This document shows, one piece after another, positions 15,101 to 29,894 of a DNA stretch of 64,000 bases. Numbering within the stretch: the stretch's first letter is position 1; every line of letters starts with the position of its first letter. The DNA is from Patellaria atrata CBS 101060. Taxonomy: Eukaryota. The translations under genes were made by a program, and so were the position numbers. The stretch is taken from contig MU006101.1 of assembly GCA_010093705.1 (NCBI GenBank), positions 347,614 to 411,613 on the forward strand, in the 5' to 3' direction. The notes under the pieces are model-generated. The model saw nothing but the letters and a program-made list of their open reading frames with translations. It was not told the origin of the DNA and made no database searches.

Positions 15101-18100
15101 GTCTGGTCCTAAGACGTTGATGATGCTGTCGATGCACCTCACAATCACAGCTTCCGAAGGGAGGTCAAATTCGAGATCCGAAGACCCCAGAGAGTCCGTC
15201 TCGGTGTTGTGGCTATCATTGACATATAGCTGAGCGAGCATCCCTAGGGTGCTGGTTACATATCCGGAGAAAGACAAGCACGCGGAGTCTGCCACGCGTG
15301 AAAGGCTGTCTAGAGCCCAAAAGTGTACAGTCGGGTGTGGATCGCTGCATAGAGACATGATTATACTTAGGATATTCTTCAGATGGAAACCAGCAGCCAT
15401 ACCACCCAATTGGGAGTGGATGCATCCGAGAGCAAGAGCGCAGCCCGCTCGAGCGTTAGGGTCTCGATTTGCAATTATATGATCAACAATATGGTTGACT
15501 TCATTAGTAGTGAAAGCGTTGCCAGAACAGCTGCAAATCCTCCCTAGTGCTTCAGCAGCGATATTACGCACATATGGGTCTGGGTTAATCACAAAACCCT
15601 AAGCATATATTAGTTAAACCTCATGTTCGAACACGAGAGTTACATACGTGGAGCAATTCTTGCATTGCCTTCTCAACAGCAAGACCTCGTATCTCTCCAG
15701 AAGCAGATTTGGTTTCTTTTACAGTGACTTTTAGAGCTGATAGTAGTGCAAGAGATATGTTGACTATCATTGCAGCTTTTCTTGCAGGATCTCGTTGAAG
15801 ACTAGACGCTGATAGAAAGGATGACAATTGCTCCAAAATACTCTCTTGTACTTTTGGGGTCTGAACAGGTAAAGCAACCGCAAAAAGCTGTATTGCTGAA
15901 TTCACAACTTCAGTAGATGGTGGATCTGGTTGGTCAAATGAATCGAGAGCGGTGTCGATATACAGCGAGATGGAATCGTGCTCTTGCCCTCCGCATATTG
16001 GGGATAGAAGCTAATTTGAGGTCAGTTTCGCTTAAAAATATATACAGGTCCTTCTCATAACCTACAGTTTGGTCAACTTGGGCCTCCGGTCCGCCCCTTG
16101 TCACCCAGTGATGATCGGTTTTCGAGTCCTGCTCTCCAGGTAACGGTTTTATATCGAACCCTCGTATTAGACCTGTTACGCCAAAGCCAGAATTATCTCC
16201 AATCTCCCAGATGCTTTCAAAAGTCGCAGAGGAGGTGGCAATTGATGTGCTAAGGGAACTAGGGGCATAGTTATCAGGACTGGCAAATGAAGAGAGCGCG
16301 AGGGGCAATAAGTTAGTCTGCAACAAGGTCTCACTGCTGCCAGCAGGGTTTAGGTTAATAAGTTTAGTGTAGCATTGCAATACCCTTCGACGAACCATCA
16401 AGTCGAAGTCATGGAGCTGTAATGAAGGAGAAAGGCGCTGAGATATGTCATCTGTTGTCTTTCTACTTGGTAAGCCATTAAGAAACAGGCTCGTATTTTG
16501 TAACATAGCCGCAAGCCTCTTCGTTACGTCTGTAGTTAGAAGTCGACTGTTGAATTCAAGAAACGCGAGGATGGAACCTAACGCGCACTCACGCACATGA
16601 GCTAGAAAGCTGAGCTCGAGGACATTCCTTTGAACCATATGATCTTTGTTCAAGGGCTTAGGTAGAGCATTTTTCCAAAGAAGGAGGAGCTGTGATAAAT
16701 GAATCTTGACAAAACTTGGACCCAAGGACATTAATCCGCCAATAAGCACCCAGGCTACCTGTATCTGAGTACTGGAGATTCTCAAATCTGAAGAACTACT
16801 CGATTTCAGGAGACTGGTAGCTTGCGATAGCACACGTGAGTTCACATCAACGGAACCATACAGTGGTTGAGCAGATGTTGTACTCAGCACAGCAGAAAGT
16901 CCATTTGCCAGGCCTACGCATCGTCGTGGGGATTTTCGTGTACCAGACAACAGACCAAGCTCACGAGTGACGCTATTCATACATATTGTGAGTACTGGTA
17001 GTAACTGCTGGGGACAAGCAAGGACAAATGCTCGGAGACATGAAGATGCGTAGACCTGAACGGTATAACTTGGATGCTGAAGGACTTGAAGAAGACCCTC
17101 GCGGCAGGACTCGGAGAAAGTGCTAAGAGCAGAGCCTAAAGACTTGGCTAGAGACGTAAGAGCACTCAGAGCTCCTGTCAATGTTTGCTTGCTTGGTTCA
17201 GGCCTTTCTTTCAGAGCTTGAGGATAGTCTTTCAGTATGTCATTAACGAGAAATTTAGCAGCATCGAGCTGGCCTGATTCACCCAGTAACTGGCGTCCAA
17301 TAACATCCTCTAGAACAATACGCACGTACTTGCGTGTGGTTAATTGGCGGTAACGGTTTTGAGTGATACTCGGAAAGCTGAGAAGATTATTGAAGAGATG
17401 CCGCGTGATCTCTCCGTAATTTCTCTGAACGACCGATTCACCTAGCCCTCTCAAGCCTTTAATAAGACAGACAATTATCGCCGCTCTAGCCCGGTTGCTG
17501 GTCGCAGGTTTACAGTATTGTGTAGATAGCTCCCTTAGGAGCCCACTTATACCGAATGTTAACTGTGTAGCTGGTTTTGAGGGGGCTGGAGATCCAGGGC
17601 GCTCAGCTATTTCATCTTCACCCTCAGCAATTGTTGATCTCCTCGTAGGTTTCTTCGGCTTTCGAACTACCGGAAGAGGATCTTGTCGTGGACTATCTGA
17701 GTAGCTCTTCACTAAAATAGCAGCAAGAACTGATGCGGCAGCATGTCTGACTTTCGGAGAACCACTATCCATTGCTTTCCAAATAGCACTTTGTAACTTT
17801 TCGTAGTCATTAGAGTTATCAAAAAAAGGAGTTTCTTGTACAAACTGTTCCAGACACCAGCAGGCGTTCGCTTGGACGAGAAGTCCCTTTCCAGAGGATG
17901 CAGCCGCCCGACATTGCTTCCAGATATCTCTTGAAACGGGTTCATCCATTGACCCTCGAACACCTTTGACAATCCTTCCTAGAGTCCGGAAGACGGAACT
18001 CTTGAATCCAGTGAGAGTTTGCGAAATCTTCAATTGACGTAATATGAGTGCAGATACCAGACTTGACTGGCCTATTGCACTATCGCCAGCAGCTTCAAAT

Positions 18101-18501
18101 ATGCTTCCCAATGCATGGATAGCTGCATGTTTTGCTTTTACATCTTTATCCCCCTTTCCAGTATTCAAGATAGCAATCAACTCATTTATAGATTCAAATA
18201 GCAATTTCCTGTCCCCTTTGGTGAATATACCAGCGAAGGATCTTCCTATACTGTTTCGTATAGCTTTATTGGGGGCGGGAGAGGAAAGCGTTATGAGCTT
18301 GAACAATTCCTTCTTGATATAGACCTGATGCGAAGAAGCACCGTCTGCGTCCAGCGCAGCTACATGACGAGCGAGATTAGACGAGAATGTTAAGACGTAC
18401 AGCTCCTGCTGTTCTGAGGGGAGAGCGTGTAATTTAGGTATATCGAGTTCGGGGTTCGACGAAGTACCATTAGTGGGTGCAGTCTGCTCAAGAGTTGACA
18501 T
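12150..18501 (-). CDS. LAA1: Large HEAT-repeat AP-1 accessory protein (Laa1/Sip1/HEATR5 family), multi-exon
   Basis: ~2000 aa across ORFs 15934..18510, 15621..15905, 14297..15592, 13655..14023, 12150..13517; motifs RDPNARAGCALALGCIHSQLGGMAAGFHL, DPHPTVHFWAL and C-terminal PTIALKMDF. Confidence 0.88.
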
Positions 18502-18735
18502 CTTTAACAAGGAAATTCGTAACTCATAAAAGCATTAGGAGAAACAATCGAGGTTGTGTAGCCGCAATTTCTGTATCTTGAGCATGAAATACTTTGTTAT
18601 CCTCACGAGGAGGAATCGTCGAGGGGTTGAGATGCGGTGATTCTGTGAAGCTTCCGCATCCCTGGTCCAAGCTTGACCGCTCGGAGGTGTTTTCTACACC
18701 ACAGCATCTCACCATTTCACTCACCCCTGGCCTCA

Positions 18736-19673
18736 ATGTCCCTTTCAACTCGACAGTCTCTCCTTTTATGGAGGGTGTCGAATGAATACATATGTTTGAG
18801 ATGCCAGAGTCGGCGGCTCTCAACCTCAGACTTCCTAGGATCAGGTCACAGCAGATGGTCCACTATCAAACATGACAAGGGGAAGAATGATGCACGAAAG
18901 AACAAGGAACGCTCCGTTTTTTCCAATGAGATAGCTACAGCAGCAAAATGCAAGTGCGCTTTAAAGATACATAGTAACTTTATGCTAATCTTAAGTTTGC
19001 AGTATTCGGCGCCAATCCCGATCAAAATCCTCGTTTAGCTTTAATAATCACGAATGCGAAGAAAGCTGGTTTCCCTAAGGCTAGCATCGAAGCAGCAATA
19101 GCCAGGGGACAAGGCGTTTCCGCATCGGGTGCCGCATTGGAGGCTGTGACTGTCGAAGCAATACTCCCCCCATCCGTTGCGGTCATCATTGACTGCCAGA
19201 CCGATAATAAGCTACGCACTCTCGCCGATGTTAAGTTTGCGGTCAAGAAGTCGGGCGGGACTGTCACGCCCATTGAATACATGTTCGAGAAGAAGGGTAG
19301 AATAGTCTTCAAGCAGAAAGATGGTATTGGTGTAGACGAAATACTAGAGCCGGCATCAGAAGCCGGAGCCGTGGATGTCGCAGAGGGTGAACAGGGAAAT
19401 GTGGTCGTGTACACGGAAGTCAATGACACGAAATCCACAGCGCTAGGACTATCTAAAGACCTAGACTTAGAGGTCGAGAGTTCAGAGATAATATACGATG
19501 TAAACGAAGACACCAAGGTCGAACTCGAAGATGAAGAATCTATAAAGCCGCTCCACGAGTTCATCGACAAGTTAGAGGGTATACACGGCTTTTCAGGGCT
19601 GTATATAAATGCCGCTCAGGGATCCTTAGACGATGCAGCTTGGGCTGAACTAAAGAGTAGAGTCTCCGCATAG
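18736..19673 (+). CDS. TACO1: Mitochondrial YebC/TACO1-family translation factor
   Basis: SGHSRWSTIKHDK, NPRL..I..AKKAGFPKASIEAAI, DCQTDNKLRT, YMFEKKGRIVF; GC-AG intron 18950-19002. Confidence 0.9.
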
Positions 19674-19900
19674 CGTACATAATCTGTAAAGTAATGTACA
19701 TTAGATCCCGTAAAAGCCATACAGACTTGTACAACAATTCCCTACGCCCGCAATGCTGCTCTTTTGACCGCTTACAGTAGTCTTCAATCTTTATTGATAC
19801 CACCATCCATATGACCATACATCCATATTTACAATCATTCCTCATTGAATTCAGTGACGCTCGATTCGATTCCATGACACCCACTCTTCTCCCCTCCACC

Positions 19901-20235
19901 TTACTCACCATCAACCCTCCCTGTTATCTCCATCTGCCTCCTCTGTTCCTCCTCCTTCCTTAACCGTGCATCCCTCAGCGCCAATCTCCTCGCTTTCAGT
20001 CTCTTCAACTCTGCCTCTATATCCTCCCTTTCCGTTGGAATCTTGTTAACCTGATTCGGATTGGGCCAGAAATCGGGGACTGAAAAGCGCTGATCGAGGT
20101 TGGTACCGAAGTAGTACATGATGCCGATGGGGAAGAGGATGTACATCCCGAACTACAGGAGACTCGGTCAATGGGGAATCTGAAAGAGGGGGTCAGGTAA
20201 CTTACTTTGAACACTTCGAGGTTGGGACCGCCCAT
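19901..20235 (-). CDS. PET100: Cytochrome c oxidase assembly factor Pet100
   Basis: MGGPNLEVFK|FGMYILFPIGIMYYFGTNL..F.VPDFWP; intron 20205-20153. Confidence 0.92.
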
Positions 20236-21091
20236 TTTCGCAAAACTATTCCGATGCGTGGTAGGGAGTTGTGGGGAAGATATCAGTGTTATGAGGATGG
20301 TATTAACTTCGTCTATAATCAACTCGTACCAATTGGTTAAGATCCTGCTGATAGAGGTTCTTTGTGTGCTTAATCTTCAGACTTGCGGTGGTGCGTAAAT
20401 CGCGAGAATCACTAAATGCGCCACACCTGTAGCCACAGATACCTTAGTCATACCTTCCAGGATGCATCAGCCACCAGCCTAAAGTTCTTCCCATCTGTAC
20501 TTTAACCTGACGACTTCAGCAACAGATCCATACAAGGAAGTAATTATTTTGCCAAAATAAATCATTTTCTCCCTCTTCGGCAAATCTAAGAGTATGAAAT
20601 GAGGTCAGTAATTGCTGCCAATATTAGTTCAACGAAGCGGAGTCCACAGTAACAGCAGAATAGGAGGATACCTTAGAGATATAAAGTATGGATCTCTTAA
20701 TTAAGTGTCACATCGGGGCACCGTAGGGTCAGGGGTATGTAAAGAGCTATGTAAATAACAAAGGGAAAAGGGGAAAAGTAAATCATTAGACGTTAGAATG
20801 CAAGCGTAATATTCTTACGATTTCAGTGCTAGAAATTTGAATGGTATGGTTCAGTAGGTGTAGAGAAGAGCTTAGTATTGAGAAAGTTGGAAACAAAGAA
20901 AGCAGCTATGGAGGAGTGGTTGAAGTTGTTCAATAATAGGAGGAGTAATTTGCAAAAAGGGAGAGACAAAAAGCGTAAGAATGCAATCTTTTTTAGACAC
21001 AAATATCCCCCAGCAGTCACACCACCACGTGATATCCCCAGTCCCGCACTCACCACCTTACATACAATCGAGGGAGAAAATAACCCCAATT

Positions 21092-21280
21092 AACCGAATG
21101 GCAGAGCGGTCAGGCAGTCTGGCTACGATCCCCTGAAACGTCTTCAGTTCGAATCTCTCCGGGCGGGTTTATCGGTAAACCTCAGGTCAAAGGAGCAGCG
21201 GCAGTAAAAACCCGTCCGGGGGGTTCAAGAAGGCCTACGGGCCTAATTGTTTTGTCTTTTTAACTCTTTTTTTTCGGTTA
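21092..21280 (+). ncRNA. Putative RNA polymerase III non-coding RNA with tRNA-like internal promoter (family unassigned)
   Basis: A box TGGCAGAGCGG 21099-21109; B box GTTCGAATC 21147-21155; ~19-bp stem 21151-21170/21208-21226; AGGCC-TACG-GGCCT hairpin 21231-21244; T5 21257-21261 and T8 21267-21274; no cloverleaf. Confidence 0.7.
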
Positions 21281-21845
21281 CTTGCTTCTTTTTTGAGTTC
21301 CTATCAGAGAGTCTGAGATCTGAAGTTCGAGTCACGCCTTAATTTGTTTTATATGTTATTTACATTCTTTTGGAAGTTTCAAATAAGAAGAAATTTAGGA
21401 CTATTATGGACGGATCTATTTTCATGCTAATTGTTATATTATGACTGAGTACGGTGTGAATTGAGGAGGAAAATTTCAATTACTGTATGCGATCACTTAT
21501 GAGAATGCTCCCGACTGAAATAAGTATGGAACGACAGCACCTTATACTTTAGTTCTAACGCTTAGACATCCCTATTTACTTTCTGATTCACACACCATAG
21601 CTAACTGCAGTTGTGGCAACCGGTTGAGTCCAGACCTATGAGTAAACGGTTGATGTCCCGAGCGCGTCTATCACCACCCTCGTCACTGCTGGCATTTTCT
21701 TTGTGGTCTTTACGCTTGCTAGACAAGCTCTTAGATTCAAATGTAACCCGGCTACATGGTATATAACCCATATAGCTGTGAGGACGTTCGCCCTCAAGGC
21801 TCCCCGGTCCGCGAATAGAGTTCACCCACAGCATCCCCCTATTTC

Positions 21846-22607
21846 CTATACGACAGGACCGCCCCACTCGCTTTGTCCCGGCGCAATCATCCTTCTTTTA
21901 TTCGACGCATCCGGATGACAGAGGCCTGCATTACTTGTACCGGCACTGTTCGACTCCTGTCACTCAGTCAATATATCACTCTTCGCCATTGTCAGGGATG
22001 ACAATTTGATCAAGACCGCACGTGCGAAGAGCAAAATATCAGAGGCACTTACAGCATGAGTCACAGCCTGCTCGACCCTCTTCCGCTTCCTCCACTCCGT
22101 CCTCTGCATCTCCCTCTCCCCCAGCTGCACAGCCTCAATACACTGCGCCAAAAACTCCGCCTCACCCCTCGTCGTCAAAGCCACACTCCTCTTAAAAACG
22201 TCCATCCTCAACTCCTGCCTCAACCTCTTCAAAAACCCCTGCATCTCATAGCTGCGCTTCAGCTGTTCGATGCGCCTAGCCACATCCACGTTCTCGGCGT
22301 CCTGGGAGGTCAAGGGACGACGGCTGAACCAGACCCCTCGGAAGGAGACGTGGTTCTGGATCTCAGGCCTCAGTCTCCGGATGAAATACTGGATCTTGAG
22401 CATTTCATCGACTTCGGCGGTGAGGTATTCCTCGAGGTGGAAGAGGTAGGTGGAGAATTCTGCGACGGTCTGGTTTTCGCCTTGTCTGGCGCGGTCGTAG
22501 GCTATGAATGCGTTCAACTCTAGATGCACCGAAGCTTGCACGGAGGATTGGAAGTCTTCCATGTCTTTGATAGGTGTAGGTTCGCTTTCTCGGGAATATT
22601 TCTTCAT
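21846..22607 (-). CDS. Solitary Ty3/gypsy Gag capsid (C-terminal domain)-like protein; unspliced ORF ends at 21960, possible intron 22052-21957 extends it to 21846
   Basis: ARQGENQTVAEFSTYL..LEEYL (MHR-like) followed by F..RLRPEIQ..V..T...A..VARRIE and a second copy F..RLRQELR..V..TTRGEA..LAQCIE; no pol ORF or LTR seen. Confidence 0.65.
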
Positions 22608-23285
22608 GGGGTCTCTAGTTCCTCGTTCGGGCGGGGGGTTGTTGGACTTTGGAAATCAGATGACTATCTTGGGAAATTATCTTCCTTTTATTCTCGACTC
22701 CTTCTGCACGCATCTTTGGTCGGGTTTCCATCACCGTCACTCTCAAATGGTCGTTGAATATATCACTGTAGATCTAATGTCGCTTTGTGGGTCTTCTGCG
22801 CGTAGTACGCGATCTGGTGGTTGAATACTCGTCATGACTCCTAATGTGACCTTCAAACTTCGGCCAATGGAAAGGATTTTCAGTCCATCCAACCTCATTG
22901 AGTAAGATCTAGAGACTCAACTTCACTTCACCAAACAAGTAACCTACAGTACCAGTTAAATGTTGTTAAGAGTTCCATTTGTTATTCTATGCTATTTCGT
23001 AGAACTTACTTTGACACCCTTCCCCATTCCGCATAACAACGCTTGGTGAACAACAACTAGGATACTACTACTTCCGCTACATTACCAAGCTCGATTATCT
23101 CTACTGTCGAGTTCATCCCACTAGCGTGCACAGATTATTCAAGAAAGCCAAAGCGATATGTTGAGAAAGTCTTTTCAATTCTATATGAAGTTATACAAAA
23201 ACCAGCGTAGTTTTGTGGGGCGCGAGTGATGCTACGATCATACTAGGGTGAACCTGCCAACTAGAGTAAAAGCAATTGTCGACCC

Positions 23286-24669
23286 TCAATCTTTCTTCGA
23301 GAAGTAGTTTGCCAGAGTATTCTTCTGCGGACTCTTCTCTTTCGCCTTCTTCGGGCTCTCCTGTTTCTCAGGTTTCTCACCAACCCTCAACGCACGCATC
23401 AACTCCTCAAACTCCTCAACTGGTACAATCCCACCGCTCGCCTCCTTATGACCCCTTGCGAACGCATCTCCGAGTCGTTCTCGCAGAGTTGGATCTTCTG
23501 CCAAATCCGCAAAACTTTTTAAACTCTCGATGAGATTGACCGGCGGGTCTCTGCTCCGTGCACAACGAGGTATGCGGCACGAGAAGTTGACATAACCGGG
23601 TAGATAGCCCGAATTCGCAACGAGCACAACTTCTAGCTTCTTGGAATTGAGGTGGCCAGCCCATCGAGTGGCAATTACTGGGTGGACCTGAGCGCCGCTG
23701 CTTATACGCAGAACAGCGACTTTGCCGTCGTACGAGAACTTAGGAGGTGTATGCGTACAGCGTTCAGTTTCTGCAAACACTTCGTCGCGCGCTAGGTGTA
23801 ATCTCTTAACTTGTAGTACGTCCTCAGGTTTAGTAGCATCTACGAGAGCATTCCACGCCGAGATGACGTCGTAGGTCGCTGTTCTGCGAGGAGCGTTAAG
23901 TGCAGATACGCAATCATTCAAGGCCTTCTTAGAATACCTCTTGAAAGTATCTGTCATATCTGGGAAGGGTGGAAGCCATTTGATGGTCGTGCCCAGATCA
24001 CCATGCGTACCAATTATACACAGCCAAGCACACTGTTCTTTCACAACCGGATGAAGTTCAGCGCATAACGTATATGTTAGAAGGGATGCCGTTGCGACGG
24101 GCGGCGAGTGACAAGCGGTGACAAATTGTGCACCATTTGGAAAACTTCCATCTTCCGCATGGTGATGGTCTATAATAAGTGCAGTATGGGGAGAATCGAT
24201 AACAGGAGGACCACTCCGGGATCCTTGATCAAGCACAAACACGTAACTTGGATTGTGAGATGCCATCTTATCGCGTTCGACATCAGTATGAATAGTGTTC
24301 CCTTTGCTTATAAGGTGAACAGCAATGTTGTCGGCAGATGCACCTAGTAATATGAGGGTACGACGAAGGATGCACCCCGATGTAAGTCCATCAGCGTCCT
24401 TGTCCGGAACGATGAGTATTCTATTGTTGGGTTGGGCACTGAGAGCGTCAGTAATAATGCCAATCGATACATTTGCTAGTGATACCAGACCTTTCCCTGA
24501 TGGTTTTACGAGCATTCTGTATCTGCACTTTAGGGGCTGGCCATATGATATTATCATTCTCATCGCGTAGCGAAGTTGTAAGATGATATTCGGGAACCTC
24601 TATTTTCGCCTTTTTCGAAGATGAACGCCCAGTAGAAGGGGCTTCCTTCCTCTTAAGTGTTGAAGCCAT
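23286..24669 (-). CDS. DHH-family phosphoesterase (RecJ-like)
   Basis: Motifs PDKDADG, VLDQG, IIDHH, GTHGD and a DHHA1-like RGHKEASG; exon 1 MASTLKRK... joined by an intron at ~24490-24439. Confidence 0.85.
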
Positions 24670-25761
24670 CCTAAACTTAGATAGTAGTCTTAGATTTTGG
24701 TTGCTAGATCGAGACAGCACTTGAAATAGGTTATTATTGGACACCGGACGAAATAAAGATGCGATAGGAAGTAGCAACGATGTTTTGAAAATGATGACCA
24801 TAACCAATCATTTAGAAAGCATTCCAATCAATGGGCAGTGACTGATCGAACGAGATTAACATCACTTGGGACTATACCGAGCAGAAATGAAGCGACAAAA
24901 GGGACTTCAAACATGTCATGACGTTAGTGGTAAGACCAATTGACTATGAACAGTTTGCAAGTGAAAAAAGATTTAGCTAGAGATGAGATCCCAATTCCAG
25001 CTCGAGCATCACGAAAGTATCAAAATGGTGTCAAAAGGAGCTTTCTGGACCAGATGTCAAGGCAGCACAGTCGCAAGCACTCCGCAGCTGCAGAACTGCG
25101 TGGTTGTCGGGCAAACACGTTCGACGAAATATAATTACCAAGCATTGCCCTTTGGGGAAACCACACTTCAGTCTAACCGAAAAGCCTCTAGTGGGTAATC
25201 CCTTCCATCTCATCACAGAAACTGAACTTGAACCACTTTGTCTAAAGATCTCATGTTACACATGGATGTTCAAGATTTTTGGAGAAGATATCAGAATATT
25301 ATATGAAACTGTTCTATTCCTAATCGTTAAGAAGATGACCAAAAAAATTCACGGCCTTTTTGAAGTTTTTGGTGTATAATATGCCAAGACTCGGACATGC
25401 CTGAGGACTGAACTAACGATAAATGGGCATCTCAGGAGAACGCTCACCCATTACGCCTTTCTAAAATCATAAACGATAAGGGGGACATGTTCTTCGGACT
25501 CCTTCACCACTCATAGGCTTCATCTTACGGCAAGATGGATAGGGATGTCGAGAGAGCATACTTCCACTCACTTCAGCAAGCACTGGGTTCATCGTTGTAT
25601 ATCAATATGGCTTAGAGGTTTAACATTGAAGGTAGGTTTTAAGAGATAATACGTTGCTAGCAATAGAATAGTACTTCATAACCAACGATCCCGCCGCCAT
25701 ATTATTCACCGAGCACACCCATCGAAGATACCTGCGACTGAAACCGAAGCTACCGCTCACC

Positions 25762-26652
25762 TTACACCATTCTCCTCTCCCAATGCCTCACCTGACTCCT
25801 CCTGGAAGGGATCATCGTCCCATTCAATCCACACCCAGCATTCACACAACTAGAAATGGTATGAATATACCTAATCTCCCCGCCCTCGACCCTAAACATA
25901 TGACTATCCGGCATGGGCGTCTGTCCCTGACTCCTATCCAGCCCCGGGAAGCCCAAAAACATAACCACAACCCCCATCGCCTCATCAACGATATACCTCT
26001 TATTCGTGACCGTGATATTCGTCGGGATGCCTAGATTACACGTATTCGTCGTGATGTTCCCCGTGCGGGACGTGTAGGCCCCGCCCTCGAGCCTCGCGCA
26101 CGGCGTCCCGAACGGCACGTCGACCGACGCGTTGTGGAAGCGCTCGAAGTACGCATCCCCGGCATGCTGGATCACCTCCCGCGTGTCCCGCATCCCCTCG
26201 GGGATCGGGTTCCACCGCTCGAACGAGTTCCAGTACAGATACCCCGTCGCGTTGAACAGCCAATCGCCCTGATCACTGACCACGCTCTCGATGGTCGTGA
26301 CAACGCCGTTCGTCAGCAGCATCCGCGTCCCGATGACGTACGGGTGCGGGCTGTTGGCCACGATGAGCTCGGTGAAGGTGCCACAGAGCACTGGGTCGTG
26401 TATGCTGCGCGCGTGGTCGATCTTCATCGGTTGCTGGATGATGCCGTTGGCGATGTTGAGCGCGACTTCGTTCTCACTGTAGCTGATATTGTATGAGAGT
26501 AGCGTGAAGTTCGTGACCAGCCCCGTCGATTGTGTCGTTACATATTGCTCCGTTACGGCCTCCAGCAGCGTGCGGTTGCATTGCGGTTCGCCGGTTTGCG
26601 CGACCGCGGTGGCAGCCATTGCGCCCAGTGCGAGGAGGAGTGAGCGAAGCAT
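25762..26652 (-). CDS. Secreted Cys-containing protein of unknown function (fungal family, two similar halves)
   Basis: Signal peptide MLRSLLLALGAMAATAVA; CNRTLL, YSENE, GDWLFNA, AGDAYF, PCARLEGG; several N-glycosylation sequons; strong GC3 bias. Confidence 0.85.
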   Translation of the reverse strand: MLRSLLLALGAMAATAVAQTGEPQCNRTLLEAVTEQYVTTQSTGLVTNFTLLSYNISYSENEVALNIANGIIQQPMKIDHARSIHDPVLCGTFTELIVANSPHPYVIGTRMLLTNGVVTTIESVVSDQGDWLFNATGYLYWNSFERWNPIPEGMRDTREVIQHAGDAYFERFHNASVDVPFGTPCARLEGGAYTSRTGNITTNTCNLGIPTNITVTNKRYIVDEAMGVVVMFLGFPGLDRSQGQTPMPDSHMFRVEGGEIRYIHTISSCVNAGCGLNGTMIPSRRSQVRHWERRMV

Positions 26653-27479
26653 CTTGATCTCTCCCTCTCTATCCGATCTTCAGGGTCGTGAGGAGGAACA
26701 GCGTGGTCAATTGCAGATATTGACGTTCTCCTGAGCTTCGTTATAACCCTCTCTCTTCCCCCTTTCCCGATGTCAATTATGACGTTTCATCATCGTAAAG
26801 AGGAGAAAATACCATTTAAACCCCCTCAAGAGTCCAAAAAGCATTTCGGCACTTTAGTCCAATCGATACCATGGAGCGATATACTTGTTGCTTGCAACGG
26901 CCACATATTTATATAAAAATCATATCAAGGTGCATGGACCCCTTGTATTCTTTAAGGTACGGAAAGATCTCCACGCTGCGGACGTAGTGTGGGGAACCCA
27001 GCTACCTCATCTACTCAAGTCACCTTTTAACCGGTCTAAGGAATCATCCTACTTGGGAGGATCGAATTTGGAAAGTTTCCTGTCTTGTACTATGTTTTCT
27101 GATATCGCTGCAAATTGCTACATGTTCAGTTTTCGGTGTCAGTTTTGGAGACCGGGGGAACACCCTATCATTTGCTGACTACACATCACGTCTCATGCAG
27201 TTTTAGAGGGATTATAATTTCAATATCTATAACCCCTCGATGGCTTGTATCAAACGAATGGGATATAAGTCGAACCCATTATACTTTAGCCTCCTACGCA
27301 GTCTAACCTAACCGCTCTTTGAAATCGAACATACCTTTTCAATTTCGTGGATGTTCTTCAGTCTCCCCACCACGGAAAGGATATTGAAGATAAAAGAAAT
27401 TTAGCACATTACAAGATGTATATATCTAGATATTTAGAAGCAATGCGCGGCCGGTCTATATCACGCAGGAGTCTTCCAA

Positions 27480-29894
27480 TTAGAGCGTAGACTCGAGCGC
27501 AAGCACCTGAGGATATGTTAGCATTGATCTCGAAGGTAGTCGAACAGAATGAAACTCACAATAGCGGTTCTAGCCGGAATATAGACTTGCAAAAAGTTCT
27601 TCCTACCATTCCACCCGAATGGTGTCGTGAAATACCTCTGCTGAGCATTCAACCTGGCGTGGCCACCAAACTGCTCATCGTCGGTATTGAGGATGATTCT
27701 ATACGTCCCCTCCTGCTCGACACCGATCCTATAGTCCGTGAAGCTGGAGCTAGGATGCCAGTTGAAGATCCACAAAAGCCCTGCCCGCTCAAATACAATA
27801 ACTTTGTCGCCTTCATGCTTCAAGCTAACGTAAGCTTGCTCACTGTGCAACCAACCGTACTTTTCTTCCGTCCACTGCATCTTGCTGTCAAACTCATTGA
27901 GGAACCGATAGCGTAGCAGTTGGTCGTCAACTAGGTTAAACTGGCGCCGCGCATAGTGGAAGCTGTTGCCATTGCCCTCACGTGGAAAGTCAAGCCACTC
28001 AGGATGTCCGAACTCGTTACCTTCAAAGTTGAGATATCCTTCACCGCCTAGTCCATGTGTAATTAGGCGAATCATCTTATGCAAAGCAAGGCCACGATCA
28101 ATCACCGGAGTTAATTCCGAGAGAACGGACATGTTGGTGTACATTTCGGCATCGCAAAGCCACATAAGTAGAGATTTGTCTCCGACAAGCCTAGATATCG
28201 TTAATAGATGAAATTATGAACTTAGTGAATGCCTTACGCTTGGTCGTGGCTTTCCGCATATGCAATCGTCTTTTCACCGTGCCGGCGGTTAGTCAATGTG
28301 AACGCGAGATTGCCCATATCCCAGTCAATGTCCTGCTTCTCTTTTAGCCATTTGATATAGAGATCTGGAATGGCCATAGCAAGCCTGTAATCAAAGCCAA
28401 CACCTCCCAACGACAGGGCTACGCAGAGACCAGGCATACCAGATACGTCTTCTGCTATCGTGATGACTTCAGGATATAGCTGATGTAATAGTTCATTAGC
28501 AAGCATGAGATAAACAACACCTTCCTCATCAACTCCAGGTCCGAAGTACTCGTGATAACCACCAGAGAATCCCCTTTAGAGATTAGCGAAGTCTAAAAAG
28601 TGGATAGAATAAATTACTCACGTTCCAATACCATGATGAGAGTATAGCATGCTGGTTACACCGTCAAACCGGAATCCATCGAATTGATACTCTTCCATCC
28701 AGAAGCGCAGGTTACTCAGGAGAAATCTCAGAACCTCATGATTTCCATAATTGAACAAACGACTATCCCATAGTTCGTGACGGCCCTTAGCTCCTTCGTG
28801 GAAATACTGGTGATCGCTATTATCGAACATGTTCAAACCATCCAACACATTCTTGGATGCGTGGCTGTGTACAACATCCAGCAATACTGTGATTCCCATT
28901 CCATGTGCTGTGTCAATCAGGTCTTTCAAATCGTCTGGTAATCCATAACGGCTACTAGCGGCAAAGAAGCTGTTGATCTGATAGCCAAAGCTAGCGTAAT
29001 ATGCATGTTCCATTATCGCCATCAGTTGAATTACATTATAACCCAGCTTCTTGATACGAGGTAAAACATTCCGTGTAAATTCTTTATATGTTGCTACTTT
29101 TGGATCAGGGGAAGAAATTCCCACGTGGGCTTCGTAGATACGAACGCTCGCTGGTTTCTTCGGTCGTGGGTTTTTGAAGACATATCGTTGATCCTTTGGA
29201 GGGTACCAAAATCGGGCATCATAAACAGGGGAGACAGATAGGTCTTGAGTTACTCGTGTGATCCACGCGGGAATACGTTCTTGTCGTGCGTGGTCATTCG
29301 GTACGACAAGGGAGATCTTGAGTTTCGAATCGTGTGGAATCGCTGGTTGGCCATCTTTTCCTGGTATTGTAACTTCGAATACTCCAAAGTTATTCTTAAC
29401 CATAGGGGTGGCATCTCTGTTCCATCCATCTATACACGTTAGAACTGTGAACTTGTCTTTTGACTCTTTACACATACTGAAATCTCCTATGAGATACGCT
29501 CTAAGAGCATTTGGTGCCCACTCTCGATACACCACATCGCCATTGTCTTTTACTATCAATCCAAACTTCTCGTAGCCCTGGGAGGTTGTTAGACAATTGA
29601 CATGCTCGCTGTGTGACGCGTAGTCCTGACCTTGCTGAACTTGTCCAATCCACCTTCTGTCTCGTCTATCGTTTTGATCCATTGTTGGGCTTTGAAATAG
29701 CGACTGCGTAATGCGTCTCTGAAAGGGGAAAGCCAGGGATCCAATTGAACGATACCTGTACACCAAAGTCAGTACTGCTGCAATTGAGCAAGCGAGAGGG
29801 AAAGGACTATATCAGACATACCTGTTCCATCGTTAGCCGTACGCCCGGCTGCTTCGCCTAAGACTGAATTGTCTGATTTCTGGTTGAGCTCCAT
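27480..29894 (-). CDS. GLC3: 1,4-alpha-glucan (glycogen) branching enzyme, GH13, multi-exon
   Basis: [69 protein letters not shown]. Confidence 0.97.

Follow-up and report, generated by a model that had tools for sequence, protein, structure and literature searches.

The CTD-only restriction factors that we found in the literature come from budding yeast. There Drt2, a Gag product reduced to the capsid CTD, associates with particles and restricts Ty1' (available sections of PMC10951436), but it does not restrict Ty1c, three residues setting the specificity (available sections of PMC12530519). The DRT2 gene is derived from Ty1/copia, is flanked by a broken 5' gag and solo LTRs, resembles a living target closely in sequence, is transcribed and has been shown to restrict, according to the same sections. 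The fungal co-opted gag genes Crtg12 and Crtg13 come from Ty1/copia and Crtg14 from Bel-Pao, all three being backed by synteny and selection across families, while the vertebrate SCAN domain has a gypsy Gmr1-like origin (partial text of PMC8321522). NTD-only Gag truncations are reported in mammals (partial text of PMC11011659), and the portion of PMC10799480 at hand mentions no gypsy CTD-only gene. In the literature searched, mostly the main texts of freely accessible articles, no gypsy-derived CTD-only gene of a filamentous ascomycete was found.

The locus described here belongs to Patellaria atrata, a filamentous ascomycete whose gene content and near-identical database proteins suggest the Dothideomycetes and whose genome is represented by a 28.7-Mb assembly of 127 contigs with gaps; the window is the whole stretch of 64,000 nucleotides that was analysed. 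It holds a 215-aa ORF (Table 1), and the comparisons below support its reading as the capsid CTD of a chromovirus-type Ty3/gypsy Gag without NTD, zinc knuckle, pol or LTR. Like DRT2 and Ty1 p22/p18 of S. cerevisiae, the ORF would give a CTD-only Gag product from a fixed site in the chromosome, close to a Pol III-type unit (the yeast genes as described in parts of PMC10951436 and PMC12530519). In contrast to DRT2, it appears to be gypsy-derived and to carry an added half-domain, searches of the assembly gave neither an element remnant nor a cognate target for it, and it is known from sequence alone. With Crtg12-14, as far as the partial text of PMC8321522 describes them, it has in common that it is a single-copy gag-derived fungal gene; it differs in its gypsy derivation, in being an orphan and in being known from one genome. 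The ORF and SCAN may both represent a gypsy capsid CTD kept alone, likely as a dimerisation module, a likeness by description and not by sequence; unlike the ORF, SCAN occurs in large protein families, joined to zinc-finger arrays.

Table 1. Features of the capsid-CTD ORF and of its candidate second exon (positions in the window).
Feature	Position	Strand	Description
215-aa ORF	ATG 22607 to TGA 21962-21960	minus	intact single exon, 215 codons and stop; the form in protein databases
residues 1-29	22521..22607	minus	short leader without capsid NTD; hhalign match begins at residue 30
residues 30-87	22347..22520	minus	predicted Gag capsid CTD, first three helices; hhalign, BLASTP
residues 88-118	22254..22346	minus	predicted lengthened loop and diverged last CTD helix, copy 1
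residues 122-161	22125..22244	minus	predicted second copy of the last three CTD helices, canonical spacing
RKRKR, residues 173-177	22077..22091	minus	basic patch ending a helix; candidate nuclear localisation signal
candidate intron	21957..22052	minus	96 nt, phase 0, spliceosomal; GTAAGT, TTGAC branch-like site, CAG
candidate second exon	21846..21956	minus	36 codons and TAG; open frame, stop at 21846

The earlier note had described an intact ORF of about 215 aa with several capsid-like motifs, and all of them are present: QGENQTVAEF begins at residue 42, LEEYL occupies residues 58-62, FIRRLRPEI residues 75-83 and FLKRLRQEL residues 125-133. The identical 215-aa protein in NCBI/UniRef/nr forms a cluster with one member, and the ORF sequence is matched without differences by contigs of two sequencing runs, probably of DNA. 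The order of parts is a leader, one CTD, a half-domain copy, a helix with RKRKR and a tail, with neither NTD nor zinc knuckle. Leader residues 16-27 might, judged by eye and without significance, be what is left of the last NTD helix. The first three CTD helices include a major-homology-region-like Q...V..F..YL..LE..L; residues 88-118, which lie outside the hhalign match, were assigned by position in alignments A5 and A6. The basic patch, first read as KRKR, is RKRKR, a candidate nuclear localisation signal by the NLS consensus; the tail past it has 30 residues, or 36 if spliced. The proposal that the protein may be an RNA-binding scaffold has this five-residue patch as its one basis, in an ORF without a zinc knuckle.

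Searches with the ORF itself returned little. The Pfam check proposed in the earlier note was blank: neither the whole protein nor three sub-regions matched PF03732, PF19259 or any other family. A search of the PDB by sequence also found no match, and among 1.84 billion representatives the protein matched only itself. One of two word-based homolog searches likewise returned only the protein itself and the other no relative among longer proteins, and tblastn against metagenome and viral contigs found no relative. Two single-sequence AlphaFold2 models were too poor (pLDDT 42 and 45), and Foldseek on one of them gave no match. The Pfam result is explained by the insensitivity of this test for the clade concerned, since the full Gags of the putative parent clade described below also stay under the PF03732/PF19259 cut-offs (none of six reaches them). 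In the ESM Atlas, feature matches at 0.91-0.92 were obtained, the first and second being Retrotrans_gag clusters, with only 112-124 of 256 features in common; nine of the ten structural rows were clusters with Gag families, and the first reached the bar for Ty3_capsid at TM 0.50.

The Atlas result preceded, and is independent of, a motif scan in which a DNA pattern for F..YL..LE..L(12-19 codons)LRPEL, derived from the ORF with one residue chosen by recall, was run against metagenomes (241 million records). Seven of the eight matches were gypsy Gags; the remaining one, L095, was rejected as a chance match within a long bacterial membrane-protein ORF. Pol lies directly behind Gags L090, L091, L092, L096 and L097, L093 ends at a contig edge and L094 is in a broken frame. 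The same pattern occurred at 16 loci in viral contigs, which are outside the Gag set used here. The pol of L090 has RT, RNase H and integrase, with a chromodomain match just below the cut-off.

Because these Gags were chosen by an ORF-derived motif, the following scores are inflated: the L090 Gag matched the ORF by BLASTP with E 6e-10 (31/90 identical); when it was searched against the 28.7 Mb, the ORF locus came first of nine matches (E 3.3e-5, 38%); and A4, a five-member profile of the motif-selected clade Gags, matched residues 30-87 by hhalign with probability 94.8, E 5.2e-8 and 39% identity over 57 columns. The genome match covers only residues 226-292 of the L090 Gag, and the other matches were at 22-33% identity, or short and at the zinc-knuckle end. 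Two neighbouring proteins cut to equal length, used as controls for A4, gave hhalign probabilities of 0.5 and 0.1. Identities between L090 and the ORF extend beyond the searched motif (Y, ARQ, NQTV, ST), and the L097 Gag matched the ORF by BLASTP with E 6e-5. In alignment A5 the ORF is 24-35% identical to six clade members. A4 is itself linked to recognised capsids: it matches A2, a profile of a resident family of PF03732/PF19259 Gags, with hhalign probability 94.2, and for one A2 member there is a match to a solved structure, the PEG10 capsid fragment 7LGA. Searched against the PDB, A4 recovered zinc knuckles and zinc fingers related to them, with Ty3 Gag recovered through the zinc-knuckle end alone. 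Together with the Atlas clusters, these scores support the descent from a Ty3/gypsy Gag capsid CTD that had been proposed. Compared with the seven fungal-type chromovirus Gags (Metaviridae; the motif-scan set), the ORF is alike in CTD sequence and helix order; it differs in having no NTD, zinc knuckle, pol or LTR, in its doubled last three helices, in its altered TKLRPEL and following P..R motifs, which are conserved in those Gags, and in standing as a single copy between host genes.

Two tandem copies of the motif had also been claimed. The internal repeat is above chance but modest: the best split scored 42, whereas shuffles averaged 28, and under either of two shuffling schemes 13 of 1000 shuffles scored at least as high. 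When one half was compared with the other by BLASTP, no alignment was obtained; in the DNA alignment of copy 1 and copy 2, 30 of 55 bases are identical in the first in-frame block (hand count). The second half matched A4 by hhalign over residues 122-161 (40 ungapped columns, 30% identity, E 0.0015), with a probability of only 16.5, and had no match in the ESM Atlas at 0.9 or above. By these alignments the duplication is real but partial: it is not the whole CTD that is doubled, only the last three CTD helices recurring at residues 122-161, and the extra half-domain, so read, is without helix 1. The duplication is absent from the six clade Gags aligned.

The possible intron is present as claimed, with GTAAGT at 22052, CAG ending at 21957 and an open exon behind it, whose GC content is 0.55 against 0.42 downstream; it remains plausible but unproven, and its pattern is not enriched in the window relative to shuffled sequence. 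The window has five matches, two of which use this donor; shuffles average 3.79, and 35 of 100 have five or more. About 0.02 matches are expected per 650-nt strand, for a pattern that was tuned after the site was seen. The sole gene model on record is the unspliced 215-aa protein, which reads through the candidate intron.

Upstream of the ORF, across a gap of 678 nt, is a fungal DHH-family gene (PF01368, a RecJ-like family; 23286-24599, minus strand); minor variant contigs occur within it near 23520-23630 in both DNA runs. Downstream, after a gap of about 1.5 kb, there are a small gene at 19901-20376, then TACO1/YebC and HEAT-repeat genes. In the genome the protein has no match but itself, and when the DNA of 20400-23300 was compared with the genome, only a downstream 190-nt repeat had other copies. 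The 64-kb window contains none of the 79 genome-wide RT matches, and no long direct or inverted repeats bracket the ORF within 17000-28000. In the upstream gap, three frames show many stops and, by eye, no recognisable Gag or element remnant, nor did the genome search with the L090 Gag find one there. These blank RT, flank-repeat and homology searches agree with the earlier observation that pol, zinc knuckle and LTR are missing nearby, and they answer the question of copy number that it had raised: the ORF is single-copy in the assembly, with no LTR or pol remnants found nearby. The features of an autonomous LTR retrotransposon, namely LTRs, a full gag with NTD and zinc knuckle, pol and multiple copies, were thus not found at this locus.

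The downstream repeat is one copy (21058-21275, plus strand, about 570 nt downstream) of a dispersed family of about 190 nt, present at 20 other places at 75-88% identity, with a 22-nt core found within two mismatches at 17 places. Upstream of its copies, whose flanks are otherwise unrelated, a TATA-like box recurs at a constant distance; the repeat itself has A and B boxes, a T-run and a hairpin core that is very conserved. A two-sided change was seen in only one of 47 predicted pairs. Its head resembles tRNA-Arg(ACG). ARAGORN and Rfam gave no match, nothing was found in the literature, and an identity as SRP RNA was rejected, the SRP RNA gene being elsewhere. The repeat appears SINE-like, and the kept upstream TATA would suit a family of Pol III genes more than it suits plain retroposition. 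About 50 nt past its T-run there is a second B-box-like motif, GTTCGAGTC (21321-21338, plus strand), possibly a decayed Pol III unit.

Stops were found in 62 of the 79 genomic RT matches, nearly all of them TAG or TAA. Such stops in repeats are the signature expected of RIP, and the resident gypsy elements are mostly RIP-damaged. The ORF is stop-free, and its composite RIP index is -0.72 versus +0.13 to +0.77 in four damaged gypsy loci. Its GC content at the three codon positions is 0.54/0.37/0.73, the flanks having about 0.43 GC. GC3 is 0.43-0.46 in two resident Gags and 0.41-0.48 in three of the four neighbouring genes; a neighbouring ORF at 25762-26679 has 0.78. High GC3 was considered as proof of host adaptation and rejected: two parent-clade CTDs are GC3-rich as well (47/80 and 56/80 codons, hand count), so the codon bias of the ORF may be inherited.

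We give a probability of about 0.45 to the reading that the ORF encodes a host-kept, self-associating CTD protein, perhaps a former decoy; for host retention of any kind the odds appear slightly better than even, and domestication, as we infer it, is plausible. Retention is favoured by the intact frame, the absence of RIP, of siblings and of any element trace, and a diverged in-frame duplication unseen in the clade Gags. Against it stand the possibly inherited GC3 and the failure to find an ortholog among 1.84 billion representatives and by word-based searches. The same two points would suit a neutral relic, a gag fragment left by deletions, spared by RIP as a single copy and still without a stop. 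Divergence alone does not date the capture, since the clade Gags are only 33-39% identical to L090 (three of the four others, the fourth being a near-twin) and the divergence of the ORF may predate its truncation; the candidate intron, being unproven, leaves room for a relic too. Yet siblings or adjoining element DNA would be expected of a recent relic, and the searches found neither, while in an old one the frame should be broken and the GC content should have moved toward 43%; the two duplicated copies, diverged yet both in frame, also speak against it. We regard a relic as possible, with the odds against it. The ORF could also have been carried as cargo by a non-autonomous element as yet unsampled, or be foreign DNA acquired recently, its duplication and codon bias having arisen in the mobile lineage. 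A GC3 unlike that of three of the four neighbouring genes and the tRNA-derived repeat downstream, considering that yeast Ty elements target tRNA genes (partial text of PMC10951436), would suit such an origin, which we nonetheless judge quite improbable given the lack of terminal repeats, of a second copy and of any match in the viral or metagenome scans, and given the similar GC3 of the ORF at 25762-26679. Least probable of all is an orphan helical protein that resembles Gag through a chance motif match. The blank Pfam, PDB-sequence and Foldseek results, the selection of the Gag set by motif and the limited feature overlap in the Atlas would allow it; a motif taken from the ORF nevertheless recovered gypsy Gags almost exclusively from 241 million records, and chance resemblance is unlikely because the Atlas result was independent of, and earlier than, the motif and because the matches extend outside it.

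The earlier note had favoured an anti-retrotransposon factor, which today would mean a DRT2-like protein co-assembling with a resident gypsy Gag and poisoning its lattice. By analogy with yeast this is conceivable: the ORF keeps a CTD without NTD, as do p22 and Drt2 in the available sections of PMC10951436, the genome has gypsy elements with open gag or RT frames, and it contains at least one further intact solo Gag ORF (L024). None of three resident Gag families, however, has significant similarity to the ORF; the best phmmer E was 1.0, in a non-Gag frame, the A2 profile matched the ORF with an hhalign probability below 2, and BLASTP against L063 gave an E of 34. No readable Gag was found in L064 and L065. 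Neither was the parent clade, or any closely related cognate element, detected by the motif and L090 searches among the first-look candidates scored in this one gapped assembly: the motif matched three times versus one control match, the ORF accounting for one while the letters of the remaining two put them out of register, and resident RT-RNaseH sequences reach at best 53-54% identity to L090, versus 60% between two clade members, a small margin. In yeast, Drt2 spares Ty1c despite 78.9% identity between the Ty1c and Ty1' Gags (available sections of PMC12530519). With yeast CTDs restricting only within subfamilies, and with no sign of the parent clade in the genome searches, restriction of the present residents is unlikely, and the proposal is weakened. 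One resident gypsy family (L015:2026-3258 and L014:1366-3258, both plus strand) has a long, Cys/His-rich repeated region past its zinc knuckle.

A Gag without NTD or nucleocapsid does not build particles or package RNA in the Gag manner. For a former decoy kept by the host, helix packing of the CTD type would be the only activity left, because the ORF has neither NTD nor zinc knuckle. Most likely, the ORF would at first have been kept as a decoy poisoning the lattice of its parent clade. Once that clade had vanished, it would have become by drift a small helical scaffold that associates with itself and is probably nuclear. The extra half-domain could fold back onto copy 1 to form an internal pseudo-dimer; alternatively, it might receive the first helix of a partner's CTD, as happens in the SCAN dimer, reportedly a domain-swapped, capsid-CTD-like structure. 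A bolder and improbable version is that the fungus maintains a few Gags captured from different gypsy clades (this ORF and L024) as decoys, a protein-level defence beside RIP, with the ORF as a helix-1 trap: the half-domain would capture the major-homology helix of an incoming Gag and cap the lattice, the basic patch would drag the captured Gag to the nucleus, and the parent clade may thus have been driven out. L024 (L024:1348-1938, minus strand; G000:C1, about 3177400-3178000) is a second intact solo Gag-capsid ORF, of 197 aa, which matches PF03732 over the cut-off (E 3.6e-6), has no zinc knuckle and a GC3 of 0.62, and adjoins a host gene.

If the ORF is a relic, it matters little. One chromovirus Gag clade lies below the Pfam cut-offs, so its derivatives are missed by domain-based screens. 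If the ORF is a host gene, a gypsy-derived CTD-only gene with a half-domain duplication would extend both the fungal co-opted gag genes, which come from copia and Bel-Pao in the partial text of PMC8321522, and the restriction factors of budding yeast, and it offers a small, testable protein with which to address the use of capsid decoys by RIP-competent fungi.
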